This document shows positions 27,409 through 39,100 of a stretch of 64,000 nt of DNA, piece after piece. How positions within the stretch are numbered: position 1 is the stretch's first letter; every line of letters begins with the position of its first letter. The notes under the pieces were generated by a model. That model did not search any database. It was given only the letters and a program-made list of their open reading frames with translations, and was not told the DNA's origin. The position numbers were made by a program, and so were the translations under genes. The DNA comes from an uncultured Acidobacteriota bacterium. Lineage in GTDB: Bacteria > Acidobacteriota > Thermoanaerobaculia > UBA5066 > Gp7-AA6. The stretch covers positions 116,655 to 180,654 of the forward strand of contig CAVXTP010000013.1 in the NCBI GenBank assembly GCA_963764715.1. The letters run 5' to 3'.

Positions 27409-28995
27409 CTAGAGGACGCGCGTGTACTCGCTCTGGTCCTGCTTCCACACCACGACGCCGCAGAACCGCTCGCCCTCCGGGCACACCGGCCGCACTCCCG
27501 CGTGGTGGCGCAGCGTGCACGGCGGCAGCAGCCAGGGCCCGATGCGCGGGTTGACGTCGCGGATCTGCAGGGCCTCGTCGAGGGACGCGCGCCAGATCTC
27601 CTCCTGCGCGTTGTAGCAGAGGCGCATCGCGAACTTGTGGTGGAGGTTCAGGAGGTCCGCCGACTCGGTGAAGCGGATCGCGACGGCGTTCGGCAGCAGG
27701 TAGGCCGCGAACTCGTCGGAGACGCCGCGCGAGCGGAGCTCGCCGATCGCGCGCCAGGTCTCCTCCATCGTCTCGCGGTAGAGCGCCGCGGCCTCGGGCA
27801 CGTCGTCGACGAGCATCGGGACGACGTAGTCGGGCTCCTCGGACAGGTAGGCCGGCAGGGCCGGGCGCGAGGCCGGCGTCATGCGGTGGCGCTGGTCCTG
27901 GCTGTCGGCCGTGTGCGAGAGCTTCTTGCGGAAGGTGTAGGACGGGTGGAAGAGCGCGCGCGAGAGCTTGTCGTGCGTCGTCAGCGTCAGCGTTTCGCCG
28001 AGGACGCGGTTCTTCGACGGATCGAGGACCATCCGGATCGCATCGTCGTCGGAGAGCGCGGCCCGGGGGACGCCGAGGATCTCGCGCACGGCCGAGGCGA
28101 GGATCTCCTCGTTGTTGGCCTTCCAGTCGACGAGGCGCGAGACGCGCGGCCCGAGCTCCGCGTCGAACTCTCGCCGGAACTCGCGGGACGCGCCGCGGAC
28201 GCGCGGAAGCGCCCGGAACGCCGCGTACTCGGGCGTCTCCTCGAGCGGCAGCGGGTCCTGCAGGACGGTCGCGTAGAGCGGGTCGTGCCGGAGGACCTCC
28301 TCGACCATCTGCCCGACGATCTCCCGCTGCTCCGCCGGCGCGTCCATGGTTTCGCAGAGGCGCCAGTACCGGAAGAGCGTCACGCCCGAGACCGTGTGGT
28401 ACAGGTACGAGAACGTCGCGACCGGGAGCACGTACCGCGCGATCTCCTGCGCCCGCTTCTTGACCGCGCCCGAGAACCGCGTCCGCCCGTCTCCGCGCGT
28501 GCGGCCCGGGAAGAGACCGAAGTAGCGCTCGCCCGCCATCGGCGTCAGGAGCTCGGTCAGCCGGGCGTAGGCCTCCTGCTGGCGGCGCGCGGCCCGCTCG
28601 TAGATGTCCCGCTCGGGCGCGCCCATCGGGGGCACGGCGTAGTTGCCGCGGCTGACCTCGACGTAGCGCTGGGAGACCTGCTCGGAGTTGTAGAACGGGT
28701 GCGAGTGGAGAAACGTCCAGAGGAACTGGCGCGAGACGTTCTCCAGCGCGAACTGGAAGTGCGCGTGCTGGAAGGTCGTGTGGTGCCCGGCCTCGTAGAT
28801 CGACTTCGCGATCGCGTCGCGCCGGTCGGGGCGCGCCGAGGCCTGGTCCTCGGTGACGATCCCCTTGGCCGAGTAGCACGTCCGGGCGGTCGCGACGACG
28901 TTCTCGTAGGCGCGGTCGAAGGCGTGGACGAGGCGGACCTTCGGCGGCGCGGAGGAGAAGGCAAAGCCGCTCTTGGGAAGGGGAAGGCTCGACAT
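27409..28995 (-). CDS. thyX: FAD-dependent thymidylate synthase ThyX-like, tandem two-domain form
   Basis: Domain 1: GHHTTFQHAHFQFALENVSR...SQRYV, ARYVLP. Domain 2: QDQRHR, AAYLLPNA, RLCYNAQEEI. About twice normal ThyX length. Start is 28995 or 29007. Confidence 0.8.
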   Translation of the reverse strand: MSSLPLPKSGFAFSSAPPKVRLVHAFDRAYENVVATARTCYSAKGIVTEDQASARPDRRDAIAKSIYEAGHHTTFQHAHFQFALENVSRQFLWTFLHSHPFYNSEQVSQRYVEVSRGNYAVPPMGAPERDIYERAARRQQEAYARLTELLTPMAGERYFGLFPGRTRGDGRTRFSGAVKKRAQEIARYVLPVATFSYLYHTVSGVTLFRYWRLCETMDAPAEQREIVGQMVEEVLRHDPLYATVLQDPLPLEETPEYAAFRALPRVRGASREFRREFDAELGPRVSRLVDWKANNEEILASAVREILGVPRAALSDDDAIRMVLDPSKNRVLGETLTLTTHDKLSRALFHPSYTFRKKLSHTADSQDQRHRMTPASRPALPAYLSEEPDYVVPMLVDDVPEAAALYRETMEETWRAIGELRSRGVSDEFAAYLLPNAVAIRFTESADLLNLHHKFAMRLCYNAQEEIWRASLDEALQIRDVNPRIGPWLLPPCTLRHHAGVRPVCPEGERFCGVVVWKQDQSEYTRVL

Positions 28996-29045
28996 CGAAT
29001 CTGCCATTCTAGCCCTCGCGCGAGGTCCGATAGCATCGGGTACGG

Positions 29046-29885
29046 ATGGACAGCCGGACCGACGCGGAGCTGCTCGAGGCCGCCCGGCGCGGCGACGCGG
29101 GGTCGCTCGAAGACCTCCTCGAGCGCCACCAGGCGCAGGTCTACCGCTTCGGCATGAAGATGTGCCGCGACCCGGAGGACGCCCGCGACGTCCTGCAGGA
29201 CACGCTGCTCGCGATGGCGAGGGGCGTCCGCGACTTCCGCGGCGCGTCCTCGATCTCGACGTGGCTCTACACGATCGCCCGGAGCTTCTGCATCAAGAAG
29301 CGCCGGCGCAGCAAGTTCGCGCCGGAGCCGGAGCGTTCCCTCGAGAGCGACGCCTCGCCCGAAGCGGCGGACCTGCCGGATCCGGGCCGCACCCCCGACG
29401 AGGTCCTCGCGTCGAAGCAGGTGCACGACGCGCTGGAGCAGGCGATCGGGGCCCTCGAGCCGATGTACCGGGAAGTCCTTCTGCTGCGGGACGTGGAGGG
29501 CCTGTCGGCGGCCGAGGTCGCCGAGGTCCTCGGCGTCGGCGTGCCGGCCGTCAAGAGCCGCCTGCACCGCGCCCGCCTGTCCGTGCGCGCGCACGTCGCG
29601 CCGCTCCTGGGGATCTCGCCGCCGGAGCCCGCGGCCGCCCCATCGAAGTCGTCCTGCCCGGACGTGCTCGAGCTCTTCTCCCGCCACCTCGAGGACGAGA
29701 TCAGCGCGGATGTCTGTCTCGAGATGGAGCGCCACCTCGCCGGGTGCGCCCGTTGCCGCGCCACCTGCGATTCCCTGAAGCGCACGCTCGCCCTCTGCCG
29801 CACGAGCCCTTCGGTCCCCGTGCCGAAAGCCCTCCAGGATTCGGTCCGCGTCGCGGTCCGGAATTTCCTCGGGGCGCCGTCCTGA
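29046..29885 (+). CDS. ECF sigma factor with fused C-terminal zinc-finger anti-sigma (ZAS, HxxxCxxC) domain
   Basis: DARDVLQDT, STWLYTIAR, REVLLLRDVEGLS, VKSRLHRAR; C-terminus CPDVLELFSRHLEDE..HLAGCARCRATC. Confidence 0.9.
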   Translation: MDSRTDAELLEAARRGDAGSLEDLLERHQAQVYRFGMKMCRDPEDARDVLQDTLLAMARGVRDFRGASSISTWLYTIARSFCIKKRRRSKFAPEPERSLESDASPEAADLPDPGRTPDEVLASKQVHDALEQAIGALEPMYREVLLLRDVEGLSAAEVAEVLGVGVPAVKSRLHRARLSVRAHVAPLLGISPPEPAAAPSKSSCPDVLELFSRHLEDEISADVCLEMERHLAGCARCRATCDSLKRTLALCRTSPSVPVPKALQDSVRVAVRNFLGAPS

Positions 29886-29928: not shown

Positions 29929-30315
29929 ATGGCGACCGTACAGGTGACGGAGGAGAGCTTCGAAGCGACGATCAAGTCGGGAATCGTGATTCTCGACTTC
30001 TGGGCCGGCTGGTGCGGGCCCTGCCACATGTTCGCCCCGGTCTTCGAGGCCGCCGCGGAGCGCCACCCGGACGTGGTCTTCGGCAAAGTCGACACCGAGG
30101 CCGAGGCGGGGCTGGCGGCCGCCTTCGACATCCGTGCGATCCCGACGTTGATGGTGCTTCGCGACGGCGTCCTCCTCGCGTCCCAGCCCGGGGCGCTGCC
30201 CGCCTCGGGGCTCGACGCCCTCGTCGAGAAGGTGCGATCCCTCGACATGGACGAGGTGCGGCGGAGCATCGATGCCGCCGCGGCGGACGCGGCCCGCGGC
30301 GCGGAGAACGCCTGA
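29929..30315 (+). CDS. trxA: Thioredoxin
   Basis: LDFWAGWCGPC, FGKVDTE, IRAIPTLM; GGAGG RBS. Confidence 0.92.
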   Translation: MATVQVTEESFEATIKSGIVILDFWAGWCGPCHMFAPVFEAAAERHPDVVFGKVDTEAEAGLAAAFDIRAIPTLMVLRDGVLLASQPGALPASGLDALVEKVRSLDMDEVRRSIDAAAADAARGAENA

Positions 30316-30509
30316 TGTGCCGGCGCGCGACCTGCCCGCGGTGCGGGCTCGCGACGTTCGCCGGCTGCGGCGCCCACGTCGAACAGGTTCTCGGAAACGT
30401 GCCGCCGGCGGAGCGGTGCCGGTGCGGCGGGGAGTCCCGGGACGACGCGCAAGCCGCCGGGACGAGCCGTTCGCGAGGCTGGTTTTTCGGCCGGCGCGGA
30501 AAGGCGTAG
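30315..30509 (+). CDS. Small Cys-rich protein (64 aa), probably metal binding
   Basis: TGATG coupling to thioredoxin; MCRRATCPRCGLATFAGCGAHVEQVLGNVPPAERCRC. Confidence 0.75.
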   Translation: MCRRATCPRCGLATFAGCGAHVEQVLGNVPPAERCRCGGESRDDAQAAGTSRSRGWFFGRRGKA

Positions 30510-30515
30510 GCGATC

Positions 30516-30683
30516 ATGGACTCGTGGATCGAGCTCGCCGCTCTCCTCGTAGGCTGGATTCTTCTCCAGTACTGGATATTGCCCAGGCTCGGAATCGGGA
30601 CCTGAGCGGTGCCGACGCCGCGCCGGTCGGCGCGGGGGAAGCACCGGGCGGACGCCGCCGATCGAAAGGACGATTGCCCCTGA
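30516..30683 (+). CDS. Candidate small membrane selenoprotein (29 aa if TGA 30603-30605 is a stop; 55 aa with Sec)
   Basis: MDSWIELAALLVGWILLQYWILPRLGIGT-TGA-AVPTPRRSARGKHRADAADRKDDCP*; one TM helix; SECIS-like hairpin directly after the TGA. Confidence 0.6.
30608..30645 (+). promoter_or_regulatory. Bacterial SECIS-like stem-loop
   Basis: Lower stem GGTGC/GCACC, upper stem CCGCGCC/GGCGCGG, apical loop GGTC starting 19 nt after the TGA. Confidence 0.55.
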
Positions 30684-30702: not shown

Positions 30703-31443
30703 TTGATCGGCTGGATCCTCGGATTCGGCCTGCTCGCGAGCGTCGCCAGCGTCGGGCTCGCCGCCGTGATCCTCCTGCTGCCCGCCGCAACTCGCTCGAC
30801 CCTCGTCACGACCCTCGTCAGCTACGCCGTCGGGACTCTGCTCGGAGCGGCGTTTCTGGGGCTTCTGCCCAACGCCCTCGCCCAGGCGGGCCACCGGCCG
30901 GTCCTGGCCGCGACGCTCGGCGGCATCCTCCTCTTCTTCGTGCTCGAGAAGGTCGTCCTGTGGCGGCACTGCCACGCCGGCGAGTGCGAGATCCACGGAC
31001 GCCCGGCGGCTGCGCTGATCCTGGCGGGCGACGCGCTCCACAACTTCGTGGACGGCGTGGCGGTGGCCGCGGCCTTCGAGGTCTCCGTCCCGGTCGGCGT
31101 CGCGGCCGGGTTGGCGATCATCGCCCACGAGGTACCGCAGGAGCTGGGTGACTTCGCCGTCCTGCTGGAGGGAGGCTTCTCCCGGGTTCGCGCACTGATC
31201 TGGAACGGGTTGTCCAGCCTGACGACGCTGGCGGGAGCTCTGCTCGGGTACTTCTCGCTCGAGACCCTTCGTCCGGCGCTGCCGTTCGTGCTGGCCGTTT
31301 CCGCCGCGGGCTTCGTCTACGTCGCGGCCGCCGACCTCATCCCCTCCCTTCATCGAAGAGCCCGGGGCGCCGCCGGACTGGGACAGTTCGCGCTCGTCCT
31401 GGCCGGCGTCGCGACGATCGCCCTGCTGCACTCGGATCACTGA
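30703..31443 (+). CDS. ZIP family metal (zinc) transporter
   Basis: GTLLGAAFLGLLP, HCHAGECEIH loop, GDALHNFVDG, HEVPQELGDF, YVAAADLIP; TTG start. Confidence 0.9.
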   Translation: MIGWILGFGLLASVASVGLAAVILLLPAATRSTLVTTLVSYAVGTLLGAAFLGLLPNALAQAGHRPVLAATLGGILLFFVLEKVVLWRHCHAGECEIHGRPAAALILAGDALHNFVDGVAVAAAFEVSVPVGVAAGLAIIAHEVPQELGDFAVLLEGGFSRVRALIWNGLSSLTTLAGALLGYFSLETLRPALPFVLAVSAAGFVYVAAADLIPSLHRRARGAAGLGQFALVLAGVATIALLHSDH

Positions 31444-31720: not shown

Positions 31721-32227
31721 ATGTCCGAAATCCACAGCACCTACCCCTTCTCGATTCGATGGCAGGATGGCAAGCGCGGTCTGGCCAGCGCCCCGGATGG
31801 GCTCCCGGATCTCGAGATCGCCTCGCCGCCGCAGTTCGGCGGGCCGGGCGGCCGCTGGACGCCGGAGCACCTCTTCGTCGGCGCCGCGACGAGCTGCTGG
31901 TTGACCACGTTCCTCGCGATCGCCGAGCTGTCGAAGCTCGATTTCGTGGCGGTCGAAGCGGCGGGGGAGGGGTTTCTCGAGCGCGGCGACGACCGGCGCT
32001 TCTCGATCACGCGGATCGTTCTGCGCCCCCGCGTGACGGTGCGCCGCGAGGAGGACCGCGACCGGGCGCTGCGGATCGTCCGCAAGGCCGAAGAGTCCTG
32101 CCTCGTCGCCCGCTCCATGCGGACCGCGATCGCACTCGAGCCGGTGGTCTCGGTCGGCGAGGCCGGGGCGCGGGCCGCGGGCGCCGGCCCCTCGTCGGAG
32201 CCTCCCGCGATCTCCCCGCCGTCCTGA
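31721..32227 (+). CDS. OsmC/Ohr family peroxiredoxin-like protein
   Basis: PPQFGGPGGRWTPEHLFVGAATSC and KAEESCLVARS, giving two conserved Cys. Confidence 0.88.
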   Translation: MSEIHSTYPFSIRWQDGKRGLASAPDGLPDLEIASPPQFGGPGGRWTPEHLFVGAATSCWLTTFLAIAELSKLDFVAVEAAGEGFLERGDDRRFSITRIVLRPRVTVRREEDRDRALRIVRKAEESCLVARSMRTAIALEPVVSVGEAGARAAGAGPSSEPPAISPPS

Positions 32228-32318: not shown

Positions 32319-33149
32319 ATGCTGACCTTCACGCTCGCCGTCGGGGCGGGCTCGCTCGTCGCGGGCTTCCTCGGCGCGCTCACGGGGCTGGGTGGGGGCG
32401 TCGTCGTCGTTCCGCTGCTGACGATCGCGTTCGGCGTCGACATCCGTTACGCGATCGGGGCGTCGCTGATCTCGGTGATCGCGACCTCCTCGGGCGCGGC
32501 CGCGGCCTACGTGAAGGAGGGGTTTTCGAACCTGCGGATCGGGATCTTTCTCGAGATCGCCACGACGACCGGGGCCCTGGCGGGCGCCGGACTGGCCTCG
32601 CGCACCTCGACCTCCGCGATCTCCGTCGCGTTCGGTCTCGTGTTGATCGCGTCGGCGTTTCTCACGCTGCGCTCCCGTGGCGACCGGTCCGCGCCGGAAG
32701 CGCCGGGAGGATGGGGCCGGCGACTGCGCCTGAACGGCCTGGAGCCGACGGCGGCCGGACCGAGACCGTACGAGGCCCGCAACGTGCCGGCGGGGTTCGG
32801 CGTCATGTTCGTCGCGGGGGGTCTCTCCGGCCTGCTCGGAATCGGGTCAGGCGCGGTCAAGGTGCTCGCGTTGGACGGGGCGATGGGGCTGCCCTTCAAG
32901 GTCGCCACCACGACGTCCAACTTCATGATCGGAGTGACCGCCGCGGCCAGCGCCGGCGTCTACCTCAACCGCGGGTACATCGATCCCGGCATCGCGCTGC
33001 CGGTCATGCTGGGGGTCCTCGTGGGATCGCTCGCGGGCGCGCGCCTGCTGGCCCGGGCCGAAACCGCGCGGCTCCGGCTCGTCTTCGTCGTCGTGATCCT
33101 CGCCCTCGCGGTCGAGATGATCCGCAGCGGCATCACCGGGAGCATCTGA
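32319..33149 (+). CDS. Sulfite exporter TauE/SafE (TSUP) family permease
   Basis: GALTGLGGGVVVVP, SGLLGIGSG, ATTTSNFMIGVTA; multiple TM helices. Confidence 0.88.
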   Translation: MLTFTLAVGAGSLVAGFLGALTGLGGGVVVVPLLTIAFGVDIRYAIGASLISVIATSSGAAAAYVKEGFSNLRIGIFLEIATTTGALAGAGLASRTSTSAISVAFGLVLIASAFLTLRSRGDRSAPEAPGGWGRRLRLNGLEPTAAGPRPYEARNVPAGFGVMFVAGGLSGLLGIGSGAVKVLALDGAMGLPFKVATTTSNFMIGVTAAASAGVYLNRGYIDPGIALPVMLGVLVGSLAGARLLARAETARLRLVFVVVILALAVEMIRSGITGSI

Positions 33150-36170: not shown

Positions 36171-39100
36171 CGCTCGACCCGCGGGTGCGGCTCGTGCAGG
36201 AGCGCGAACGCCTCGGCCTCGCCGGACGCCTCGCCTCCGCGTTCATCGAGTCGAAGCTGACGCCTTTGCTCGTCTTTTTCGCCCTGGCGCTCGGAGCCCT
36301 CGCCATCGCCGTGACGCCGCGCGAAGAAGAGCCCCAGATCAAGGTCCCGATGGTCGACGTCTTCGCGTCGCTTCCGGGCCGCGGCTCGGTCGAGGTCGAG
36401 CGGGAGATCTCGTCTCCCCTCGAGAAAGCCTTCTGGTCCATCCCCGGGGTCGAGTACGTCTACTCGACCTCGTCGCCGGGCTCGGCGTTCGTGGTCGTGC
36501 GCTTTCGCGTGGGGGAGGACCCCGACCGCGCCTTGGTGCGGGTCCGCTCCAAGATCGACGCGCTCGCCGACGCCTGGCCGCGGGACGTGCCGCCGCCGGT
36601 CGTCAAGCCCCGTTCGATCGACGACGTGCCGATCTGGGCCCTGACGTTCTGGAGCCCGACGCAGGATCCGGCGACGCTCCGGCAGATCGCGGCGGAGGTC
36701 GAGAACGAGATCAAGAGCATCCCGGAAGTCTCGGACACCGCCCTCATCGGCGGCTTGCGGCGCGAGTTCCGGGTGGAGCTCGACCCGGCGCGGCTCGCGG
36801 CGCGCGGGCTCGCGGCCGGCCCGGTCATCGCGGCGATCGAGGCCGGCAACCGCCGCACCGTGGCGGGCGAGATGGTCGCCTCCGACCGGGGCGTCGTGGT
36901 CGAGGCCGGCGGCTTCCTCGAGTCCGCGAGCGAGCTCGGCTCGGTCGTCGTCGCCGAGCGCGGCGGACGCCCGGTGCGGCTCTCCGACGTCGCGACCGTC
37001 GTCGACGGACCGGAGCGCCCCGCGACCTACGTGACGCACGGGGAGCCCGGCCGTGCCGGGCGCTTCGCCGCGGTCACGCTCGCCGTCAGCAAGCGGCGCG
37101 GCGCCAACGCGATCTCGGTCGTGCACGCGATCGAGCGCCGGCTCGACGCCGTGGAGCCGCGCCTTCTCGCCGCGGACGTGCGCACGACGGTGACGCGCGA
37201 CTACGGCGAGACCTCTTCGGAGAAGTCGAACGAGCTGCTCAAGCACATGGCCCTCGCGACCCTGTCGGTCGCGCTGCTCATGGCGCTCGCGCTGGGCCGG
37301 CGGGAGGCGGGCGTGGTGCTGCTCGCGGTGCCGGTCACGCTGGCGCTCACGCTCTTCGTCTTCATGCTCTTCGGCTACACGCTCAACCGGATCACGCTCT
37401 TCGCCCTCATCTTCTCGATCGGCATCCTCGTCGACGACGCGATCGTCGTCGTCGAGAACATCGTCCGCCACCTCCGGCTGCCGTCCGCGCACGGACGCCC
37501 GCTCGCCCGGATCGCGGTGGAGGCGACCGACGAGGTCGGCAACCCCACGATCCTCGCCACGTTCGCGGTCATCGCGGCGATCGTGCCGATGGGTTTCGTC
37601 GGCGGGCTGATGGGACCGTACATGCGCCCGATCCCGGTCGGGGCTTCGGCGGCCATGCTCTTCTCGCTGCTCGTGGCCTTCGCGATCTCGCCCTGGGCGG
37701 CGCGCCGGCTGTTTCGCGGGACGCCCGCCGGGGCGGCCGGCCACGGCGAGGGCGAGCGCAGCCGGCTCGCGCAGCTCTACCGCCGCGCGATGACGCCGCT
37801 CGTCTCGGACGGCGGCCGGCGCTCGCGCGCGATCTTCTTCGGCGTCATCGCGGTGCTGCTCCTCGGAGCAATGGCGCTCGTGCCGCTGGGCGTCGTGACC
37901 GTGAAAATGCTGCCCTTCGACAACAAGAACGAGTTCCAGGTCGTGGTGGACCTTCCCGACGGAACGACGCTCGAGACCACGCACCGCGTGCTCTCGGAGA
38001 TGGCGGACGCCCTCGCGCCGCTGCCGGAAGTGACGGGAACCGAGGTCTACGCCGGCACGGCCGCGCCCTACAACTTCAACGGCCTCGTGCGGCACTACTT
38101 CCTGCGCTCGGCGCCGCACCAGGGAGACGTCCAGGTGTCGCTGGCGCCGAAGGGGAAGCGCTCCCGCTCCTCGCACGCCATCGCCCGCGCCGCCCGCGGG
38201 CTCCTCGAGCCGATCGCCCGGCGCTACGACGCCCGCGTCAAGGTCGCCGAGGTGCCGCCGGGTCCCCCGGTGCTGCAGACCCTCGTCGCCGAGATCTACG
38301 GCCCGGACGACGCGGGCCGCCGGGAGGTGGCGCGGCAGGTGCGCGACGTGTTCCGGAAGACCGAGGGAGTCGTCGACGTCGACTGGTACCTGGAGACCCC
38401 GCGCGACAAGGAGGTCTACCGGCTCGACCGCGAGAAGGCGGGCCTCTCGGGGATCCGCGAGTCCGACGTCGCGGCGACCCTGCGCCTGGCGCTCTCGTCC
38501 GATGCGGCCGGCGAGATCCACCTTCCCGGGATCCGCGAGCGGATTCCGCTGCGGTTCACGCTGCCCGAGGAGCGCCGCCACGACCTCTCCGCGCTCGGCG
38601 CGCTCTCGGTCGCGGACGCGTCGGGCCGCCTCGTCCCGCTCTCCGAGATCGGGCGCTTCGAGCGCGTGCCGGCCGACACCTCGATCTACCACAAGAACTT
38701 GAAGCCGGTCGTGTACGTCACCGCCGACGTCGCCGGGCGCCGCGAGGCCCCGGTCTACGCGATCGGGGCGCTCGAGAAGGGCATCGCGTCGATCCCGGTG
38801 CCGGGCGGGTACCGCATCCAGACGCGCACGGCGACCGCGCCGTTCGACACGGCGCGCTTCGGGCTCAAGTGGGACGGCGAGTGGCACGTGACCTACGAGG
38901 TCTTCCGCGACCTCGGCCTCGCCTTCGCGGCGGTCCTCGTCCTGATCTACGTCCTCGTCGTCGGCTGGTTCAAGAGCTTTACGGTGCCGCTCGTCATCAT
39001 GGCGCCGATCCCGTTGACGCTCGTCGGGATCCTCCCGGCGCACGGTCTCTTCGGCGTGTTCTTCACCGCGACCTCGATGATCGGCTTCATCGCCGGCGCC

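Follow-up and report, generated by a model that had tools for sequence, protein, structure and literature searches.

A candidate membrane micro-selenoprotein of an uncultured Acidobacteriota bacterium represents a divergent branch of an unnamed and widespread (U/C)-x4-C family

In a 64,000-nucleotide stretch of the genome of an uncultured Acidobacteriota bacterium (hereafter, the window), we analyzed an unannotated small open reading frame (ORF) at positions 30516–30683 of the forward strand, which contains an in-frame TGA at codon 30. A preliminary description of the window had proposed that this ORF encodes a 55-residue membrane selenoprotein, and the comparative analysis supports this core reading: the TGA is fixed in close homologues, more distant homologues have a cysteine (Cys) codon in its place, and the genome carries the machinery for selenocysteine (Sec, U). 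Judging from these sequence comparisons, we consider that the ORF is very probably a real selenoprotein gene, and that its UGA codon is presumably decoded as Sec by SelB through a hairpin resembling a Sec insertion sequence (SECIS). By the same comparisons, the gene falls into a divergent branch of a large family that has no name and that takes the form (U/C)-x4-C in most phyla.

The layout of the ORF was as previously described. From the ATG at 30516, 29 sense codons (MDSWIELAALLVGWILLQYWILPRLGIGT) run to the end of ILPRLGIGT, the in-frame TGA follows, and a further 25 sense codons (AVPTPRRSARGKHRADAADRKDDCP), ending in DDCP, precede a second, terminal TGA at 30681–30683. In all close homologues collected, the first of these TGAs occurred at a common position. 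A six-frame search with the 55-residue read-through product detected the gene in 13 of 41 genomes, including the window's own, and in all 13 the TGA came after LP(R/K)LG(V/I)(P/G)T; four other matches (L035 in G032, L039, L040, and L043) were removed because no family motif appeared on translation. The 13 sequences constituted profile A1. When this profile was applied to the order, all 68 strong matches (E ≤ 2.6e-8), which were distributed over 65 of 175 genomes, had the in-frame TGA, and nine weak matches (E > 9e-4) were left uncounted. An even draw of 301 genomes from the phylum contained the family in 89 genomes (about 30%) and 58 of 185 genera, with TGA in 90 of 90 matches. A scan of metagenomes for the window's subtype, using the peptide AVPxPRRSAR, gave 26 loci, and the TGA was present in all of them.

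The sequences of more distant homologues indicate that the column of codon 30 is a Sec/Cys pair of the classical kind, flanked by conserved sequence on either side. When 1.84 billion representatives were searched with a profile, 574 proteins were obtained at E ≤ 1e-3, with profile E-values reaching 1e-14. These matches included a group of 29–30-residue proteins that stop at the TGA column and a group of longer proteins with Cys at this column, typically in the context LPxLG(I/V)PT-C-MSGxC. Some of the longer representatives have W or G at the column, and these were taken to be gene calls made under other genetic codes. A search of species-representative genomes with an alignment of the Cys form (A3) gave at least 577 confirmed loci, of which 80 were kept; without L115, which lacks the motif, they are referred to here as the 79 motif loci. 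Read from the DNA, the U/C column of these loci was TGA in 45, TGC in 23, and TGT in 11, i.e., the Cys-aligned homologues that the preliminary description had proposed to look for make up 34 of the 79. Cys at +5 (MSGxC) was present in 44 of the 45 TGA forms and in all 34 Cys forms, which gives the motif (U/C)-x4-C. According to the record titles, from which the phyla were taken, the motif loci belong to Planctomycetota (20 Sec, 24 Cys), Acidobacteriota (5 Sec, 2 Cys), Thermodesulfobacteriota (7 Sec, 0 Cys), Myxococcota (3 Sec, 8 Cys), Spirochaetota (4 Sec, 0 Cys), and other phyla (6 Sec, 0 Cys). Sec and Cys were exchanged at least 13 times on a quick tree of the 79 short sequences, which is a rough figure.

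The true terminal stops of the motif loci are mixed (TGA, 35; TAA, 24; TAG, 20), but the non-Cys sites of the column are TGA in 45 of 45 cases, so that a plain stop at this column is unlikely. With the draws treated as independent, although they are not entirely so, the probability of this outcome by chance is 0.443^45 = 1e-16. Homologues that end at this site with TAA or TAG had been named beforehand as evidence that would count against Sec, and none was found among the 68 sites from the order, the 90 from the phylum, the 26 from metagenomes, and the 45 non-Cys sites of the motif loci.

The codon at this column also corresponded to the presence of Sec machinery. selA was found in 43 of 45 TGA-form genomes vs. 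9 of 33 Cys-form genomes (Fisher's test, p = 1.1e-10). The window's own genome, which is 96.8% complete, contains tRNA-Sec with the anticodon tca (66.4 bits; ARAGORN), selB (311 bits), selA (460 bits), and selD (378 bits), each above its own curated cut-off. It also contains an fdhA gene (1036 bits) with one in-frame TGA, at G000:C18:37407–40418, on the same contig as selB. From the machinery and the TGA-containing fdhA together, we infer that the organism decodes UGA as Sec. The earlier caveat that no selA, selB, selC, or selD gene lies within the window is therefore true but moot, and the components whose absence from the genome would have spoken against the gene are all present. A further molybdopterin-type match, at G000:C11:67503–68066, is partial (86.6 bits) and likewise has one in-frame TGA. 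In the order, selB was detected in 155 of 175 genomes and in 86 of the 89 high-quality genomes, and it therefore does not discriminate carriers of the small gene from non-carriers. Twelve carriers in the order had no selB at E ≤ 1e-60; eight of these genomes are < 90% complete, and the other four (G129, G133, G162, and G171) are 90–92% complete. Five unpublished genomes (G030, G067, G094, G095, and G120) were used in the selB tally only, and none of them carries the small gene.

In the bacterial SECIS of the Escherichia coli fdhF type, a hairpin with a small apical loop is located just 3′ of the UGA, within the coding frame. The hairpin of the window has a 7-bp GC stem (CCGCGCC/GGCGCGG) with a GGTC loop, and there are 12 nucleotides (nt) from the TGA to the stem and 19 nt from the TGA to the loop. 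It is similar to the fdhF type in that it lies in frame just 3′ of the UGA and has a small apical loop, GGUC, a sequence attributed to the fdhF loop in the preliminary description. It differs in that its stem sequence is unrelated and no bulged U is evident, and the binding of SelB here is putative. The hairpin had been described as having two parts, and this was confirmed in part. Folding showed that the outer GGTGC/GCACC stem also forms in the window sequence, with the loop at the stated distance, but this stem is not kept in three congeners, and only the inner stem is conserved. Among the 945 TGA triplets of the window, 23 are followed by a perfect stem of ≥ 6 bp starting 9–16 nt downstream, and 6 by one of ≥ 7 bp. 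The window hairpin by itself is thus evidence weakly above chance, and the decisive support is comparative.

In the TGA forms, the hairpin starts at nt 16–17 counted from the U of the UGA and the loop at about nt 23, which holds for the common type and the window alike. In a local comparison of 30-nt folds (nt 13–42), which was used in place of z-scores of the whole 63 nt, the mean minimum free energy was −10.7 kcal/mol in 44 TGA forms (GC 0.64) vs. −7.3 kcal/mol in 34 Cys forms (GC 0.67), i.e., the fold is stronger after TGA than after Cys codons (one-sided Mann–Whitney U test, p = 2e-6). The stems of the TGA forms are diverse, e.g., GCGCGG/CCGCGC, GUUCGG/CCGAAC, GUUCUG/CAGAAC, GACGUCGAG/CUCGACGUC, and CUUCC/GGAAG, and the loops in other family members include UGUCA, UGGAU, and others. 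In family f2 (28 sequences), an 8-pair helix was 97.3% paired and four of its pairs had changed on both sides; 0 of 500 shuffles matched this helix, and slid controls were 35–68% paired. In the window's subtype, codons 35–39 (CCG CGC CGG TCG GCG) were identical in 29 of 30 sequences, with the lone change keeping a G·U pair, while codons 31–33 used all four third bases, which is constraint acting on the RNA. The 3′ hairpin is kept by compensatory change, as is looked for in a bacterial selenoprotein gene.

The window's subtype is a divergent subfamily of the (U/C)-x4-C family and lacks the second Cys. At +5, Cys is replaced by Pro (Pro35 in the window) and was found in 0 of 33 members from the order and 0 of 24 from metagenomes. 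A deletion of MSGxC from the window tail was considered and ruled out, because the hairpin starts at an equal distance (nt 16) in both types; the tail has a substitution, Pro for Cys. Past the UGA, members of the subtype repeatedly show the hairpin-encoded peptide AVPxPRRSAR and a Cys near the end. In 12 of 24 metagenome members, one of the three final residues is Cys (…RKEC, stop), despite the variable length of the tail, and three of four genus members also have such a Cys (DDCP, DGCD, and DGCP). This recurrence of Cys at the end of the extended frame is a point in favor of translation of the tail.

The alternative that has to be weighed against a Sec codon is that the TGA is an ordinary stop, in which case the gene would encode a 29-residue membrane peptide and the hairpin would be another RNA element or due to chance. 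Gene callers do end the gene here, many database representatives are 29–30 residues long and end at this column, and in these GC-rich genomes TGA is the most frequent stop, accounting for 30 of the 33 true terminal stops in the order. Several of our other results also weigh against a selenoprotein. The single-sequence fold of the window (71 nt) had a z-score of −0.65, with 50 of 200 shuffles folding equally well. Rfam covariance models gave no match at 30606–30640 and three chance matches elsewhere, and the z-scores of the whole 63 nt separated the TGA from the Cys forms weakly (p = 0.06). At the DNA level, the U30 column had a Cys codon in 0 of 30 sequences of the subtype and 0 of 90 in the phylum draw, and the Cys-type members of the subtype (P0003, P0004, P0009, and P0017) are protein records whose codons are unconfirmed. 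Nor is there a fixed resolving Cys in the subtype, since the Cys of the tail is absent in G016 and in 9 of 24 metagenome members.

Furthermore, two TGA-form genomes (G204 and G235) had no selA, no selB above the cut-off, and no tRNA-Sec. The locus in G204 (L104) is on a 2.7-kb contig. That in G235 (L136) is on a 2.57-Mb contig, and mis-binning of this copy is therefore unlikely. In these two cases the assemblies may be incomplete, or the gene copies may be decaying. L110 in G210, which is closely related to L136, has TGC and no selA and still keeps the SECIS-like hairpin, and the pair gives the impression of a lineage in the course of losing the Sec trait. However, an ordinary stop is at odds with the Cys codons at the column in 34 of the 79 motif loci and the MSGxC that follows both forms, with the lack of TAA and TAG in all four sets of sites, with the co-occurrence of selA and TGA forms, with a hairpin that co-varies and is specific to the TGA forms, and with the Cys that recurs at the end of the extended frame. 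We regard an ordinary stop as very improbable, and the explanation as a selenoprotein gene, taken as a whole, as highly probable.

The product would be a 55-residue single-pass membrane micro-protein. AlphaFold2, run on alignment A5, predicted a helix at residues 3–25 (predicted local distance difference test, pLDDT, ∼90) with the rest disordered, and the mean pLDDT was 68. The first six residues are net acidic and a cluster of K/R surrounds the Sec site, which by the positive-inside rule suggests an N-out/C-in topology and would put Sec at the cytoplasmic face. In this model, a 3-residue acidic N-terminus would lie outside, Sec would follow the inner end of the helix by five residues, and the disordered, charged tail would be cytoplasmic. 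The family form is a transmembrane (TM) helix followed by W-x-L-P-x-L-G-(V/I)-x-T-(U/C), and the window protein has both the N-terminal helix and the motif. In Pfam, no family matched the window protein (P0002) at E ≤ 1, among them the FeoB-associated Cys-rich membrane protein, SelK, and SelS, and 12 homologues gave only chance matches. In NCBIfam, there was likewise no family for P0002 at E ≤ 1 and none relevant for the 12 homologues, with TsoA, the hypothetical proteins DG/DW/DF, and UXX-star included in the search. A profile search of the PDB returned chance TM matches only and no related solved structure, and the best match in the Atlas (0.87) was an unnamed Planctomycetota cluster. An unnamed family of "hypothetical proteins" of 45–80 residues is close to the window protein: its Cys forms, such as P0012, P0013, and P0029, share the homologous helix and W-x-LP-x-LG-x-x-T, and their first Cys aligns with U30. 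The window's subtype differs from them in the Pro at +5, the AVPxPRRSAR peptide, and an often C-terminal Cys.

The genes around the small ORF and the features within it are summarized in Table 1. The gene for an extracytoplasmic function (ECF) sigma factor fused to a zinc-binding anti-sigma (ZAS) domain heads the string, 43 nt before the thioredoxin gene (trx), and is likely the regulator of the operon. The thioredoxin has no evident signal peptide when its sequence is read by eye. The Cys-rich ORF has the pattern MCRRxxCxRCGxxTFxGCGAHxExVL...RCRC, which is conserved in all four genus members, and 6 nt separate it from the small ORF. No U-tract terminator or terminator-like site was found between the genes of the region from trx through the Cys-rich and small ORFs to the ZIP gene. 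In three of three congeners, trx and the Cys-rich ORF lie upstream of the small gene. The overlap, the 6-nt gap, the lack of a terminator, and the recurrence of trx fit the proposed co-transcription of the small gene with thioredoxin; among sequencing runs, none of RNA was found to contain the stretch. By contrast, the adjacency to the ZIP gene did not hold beyond the window: the downstream gene varies within the genus (ZIP in the window, OsmC in G023, and a DUF442-like gene in G013), and the three congeners have no ZIP gene at this place. Elsewhere in the window, a palindromic GCCCGGC/GCCGGGC hairpin at about 37032–37076, with a TGA flanking it on each strand, is probably a terminator between convergent genes, and a 532-residue ORF on the reverse strand (27409–29007) contains two Thy1 (ThyX) stretches, making it roughly double the length that is usual for a flavin-dependent thymidylate synthase.

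Table 1. Features of the small ORF and its surroundings in the window (positions are those of the window; evidence as obtained in this analysis).
Feature	Position	Strand	Evidence or remark
ECF sigma factor fused to C-terminal zf-HC2 (ZAS, thiol-sensing type)	29046..29885	+	Pfam Sigma70_r2, Sigma70_r4_2, zf-HC2
Thioredoxin, first of the tight trx/Cys-rich/small-ORF string	29929..30315	+	Pfam Thioredoxin, 85.9 bits; upstream in G023, G013, G016
Cys-rich 64-residue ORF, start overlaps trx stop	30315..30509	+	No Pfam/NCBIfam family
Candidate selenoprotein ORF, 55 codons (M1...U30...C54-P55) and terminal TGA	30516..30683	+	Homologues: common frame, in-frame TGA
Predicted single TM helix, residues 3–25	30522..30590	+	AlphaFold2 model on alignment A5; charge pattern fits N-out/C-in
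Family motif L-P-R-L-G-I-G-T, directly before Sec	30579..30602	+	P23, G26, T29 invariant in alignments A1, A2
UGA, presumably read as Sec (U30)	30603..30605	+	Always TGA or aligned Cys codon in homologues; selA co-occurrence
SECIS-like hairpin core: stem 30618–30624/30629–30635, GGUC loop 30625–30628	30618..30635	+	Folding, subtype comparison
Cys54 (TGC), candidate resolving Cys near C-terminus	30675..30677	+	Cys in last three residues recurrent in subtype
ZIP metal transporter, 19 nt after small ORF	30703..31443	+	Pfam Zip, 113.5 bits
OsmC-like protein	31721..32227	+	Pfam OsmC; directly after small gene in G023
TauE/SafE-type anion (sulfite) exporter	32319..33149	+	Pfam TauE, 164 bits; TauE recurs beside family members

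We also analyzed the neighbors of the small gene across the family. In other phyla, upstream neighbors were examined at 74 loci and downstream neighbors at 77. The upstream genes included short zf-HC2 proteins (9), persulfide dioxygenase–rhodanese (9), Trx (6), DUF302 (3), Usp (3), and TauE (2). The downstream genes included HlyD-type proteins (8), TauE (6), YgaP-like TM proteins (6, two with rhodanese), DsbD_TM–Trx (5), cytochrome bd-I-like proteins (4), DsrE (3), ECF sigma factors (3), and Trx (2). Within the order, 16 loci of relatives were scanned and four of them have ArsR upstream, and the 26 metagenome loci of the subtype have DUF442 upstream in 10, DUF302 downstream in 9, and Trx upstream in 2. 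In family f2, a pyridoxal-phosphate (PLP) enzyme of Cys/Met metabolism or an ArsR-type regulator is located upstream, and a methyltransferase–DUF6125 gene, or a Zn-ribbon gene with DUF302, downstream. In genus g2 and its kin (L032, L036–L038, L053, L054, L057, L060, L061, L063, and L067), the small gene directly follows the PLP enzyme and precedes the methyltransferase–DUF6125 gene, a conserved context unlike that of the window. In three f2 loci (L030, L072, and L074), the Zn-ribbon gene just downstream of the small gene and before DUF302 is of the FmdB family (Zn_ribbon_8), which is given as a UxxU selenoprotein family in a 2026 review (PMC13188914).

Based on the recurring neighbors (thioredoxin, ZAS/ECF, ArsR, DUF442/rhodanese, persulfide dioxygenase, TauE, and DUF302), we tentatively suggest a role in the redox chemistry or relay of thiols and sulfane sulfur. 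The preliminary description left the choice at "redox or metal-binding," and the neighborhoods would favor the redox side. Positioned at the membrane's inner face, the selenolate could attack disulfides or sulfane sulfur (persulfide or polysulfide) to form an Se–S intermediate, which either a nearby Cys or, directly, the thioredoxin from two genes upstream might resolve. During thiol stress, the ZAS-fused ECF sigma factor could switch on the small gene, and the protein would be an accessory membrane element, for redox or sulfur relay, of sulfide and thiol-stress modules. A more specific and rather unlikely form of this idea is that the family is the missing membrane component of sulfide/persulfide detoxification, which would take sulfane sulfur or sulfite from DUF442/rhodanese–dioxygenase as an Se–S adduct and pass it to exporters such as TauE, with recycling by Trx, as a counterpart of eukaryotic SELENOK/SELENOS. 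The neighborhoods are also heterogeneous, which counts against a sulfur role: 30 of the 77 downstream neighbors belong to no family and others are unrelated (porin, beta-lactamase, and kinases), and the HlyD/CusB-type neighbors together with the ZIP gene of the window could point to metals instead.

If the Sec gene served the handling of soft metals (Zn, Cd, Cu, or Hg), the metal would be bound at the membrane-anchored (U/C)-x4-C site and exchanged with transporters such as ZIP. The position of the ZIP gene 19 nt downstream in the window and the membrane-fusion genes downstream in 8 of 77 loci agree with this, as does the common motif C-M-S-G-x-C, which offers two thiolates and a Met; moreover, Table 1 of the 2026 inventory includes MerT-like and Cu/Zn efflux transporter selenoproteins (PMC13188914). 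Nevertheless, the ZIP gene is missing from this place in all three congeners and was unseen among the 77 + 74 + 94 neighbor ORFs scanned, neighbors of sulfur transfer and thiol redox are far more frequent, and the window's subtype has no second ligand at +5, so we consider a metal role unlikely. Sec or Cys oxidation could instead signal to ZAS anti-sigma/ECF or ArsR-type regulators, in which case the protein would be a redox sensor or membrane tether. This would suit the sigma–ZAS fusion at the start of the window's string, the short zf-HC2 proteins directly upstream in 9 of 74 loci, the ECF sigma genes downstream in 3 of 77, and the 4 of 16 loci with ArsR in the order. Most loci, however, have no adjoining regulator, and a gene that is merely a target of such regulators would be found beside them just as well; a sensor role therefore seems distinctly improbable to us, and a role in thiol and sulfane-sulfur redox or relay is the one that we tentatively retain.

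The consulted part of one report (PMC5823870) describes the bigR sulfide-detoxification operon as having, beside an ArsR-type repressor, a persulfide dioxygenase, a sulfurtransferase (DUF442 or rhodanese), and a sulfite exporter like TauE, and the neighbor set of the family (ArsR, DUF442/rhodanese, dioxygenase, and TauE) matches such bigR/cst-type operons. However, that part of the report mentions no small membrane (seleno)protein, and the string in the window is sigma–ZAS/trx/Cys-rich/small gene/ZIP, with OsmC and TauE further on. The short, motif-defined TsoA, which has the LULAxC motif (NF045695), and the small families of the 2026 inventory resemble the present family in their U...C pair and their sulfur-related neighborhoods, as far as their entries in that source go; TsoB is listed there as a rhodanese/DsbD fusion (PMC13188914, Table 1). 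The motif is different in TsoA, L-U-LAx-C vs. PT-U-x4-C, and, as noted above, NCBIfam gave no match for P0002.

The eukaryotic SELENOK and SELENOS are small single-pass membrane proteins with a disordered cytosolic tail that bears Sec. The window protein would be alike in outline, as a single-pass protein with a disordered cytosolic Sec tail, but it is not homologous to them (no Pfam match at E ≤ 1), its Sec would lie beside the membrane and not at the C-terminal end, and its SECIS-like element is of the bacterial, in-frame kind.

The 2026 review lists 119 prokaryotic selenoprotein families in its Table 1, and that table contains neither a family with a U-x4-C motif nor a single-pass micro-protein (PMC13188914). 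The listed families have Pfam or NCBIfam identifiers, and the proteins analyzed here did not match these. No description of such a family was found in the consulted parts of the other literature, which included deep-Sep (PMC12013277), PMC1794560, PMC4807772, and the Haft and Gwadz preprint. Table S9 of PMC4807772 includes, without a sequence, a Planctomycete candidate selenoprotein that is called "hypothetical" and has a Cys homologue, and this candidate could be a member of the present family. Within these sources, the family thus appears to be unlisted among known selenoprotein families, to which it would add a very small, membrane-anchored one.

Gene callers cut the small gene to 29–30 residues or miss it altogether, and yet the family is widespread, with at least 577 loci in Planctomycetota, Acidobacteriota, Myxococcota, Thermodesulfobacteriota, Spirochaetota, and others, and it is present in numerous bacteria of soil and water. 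TGA forms occur in two cultured strains and Sec/Cys switching is frequent, which makes the family open to testing. For the biology of these bacteria, the family hints at an overlooked component of well-studied sulfide and thiol-stress operons.

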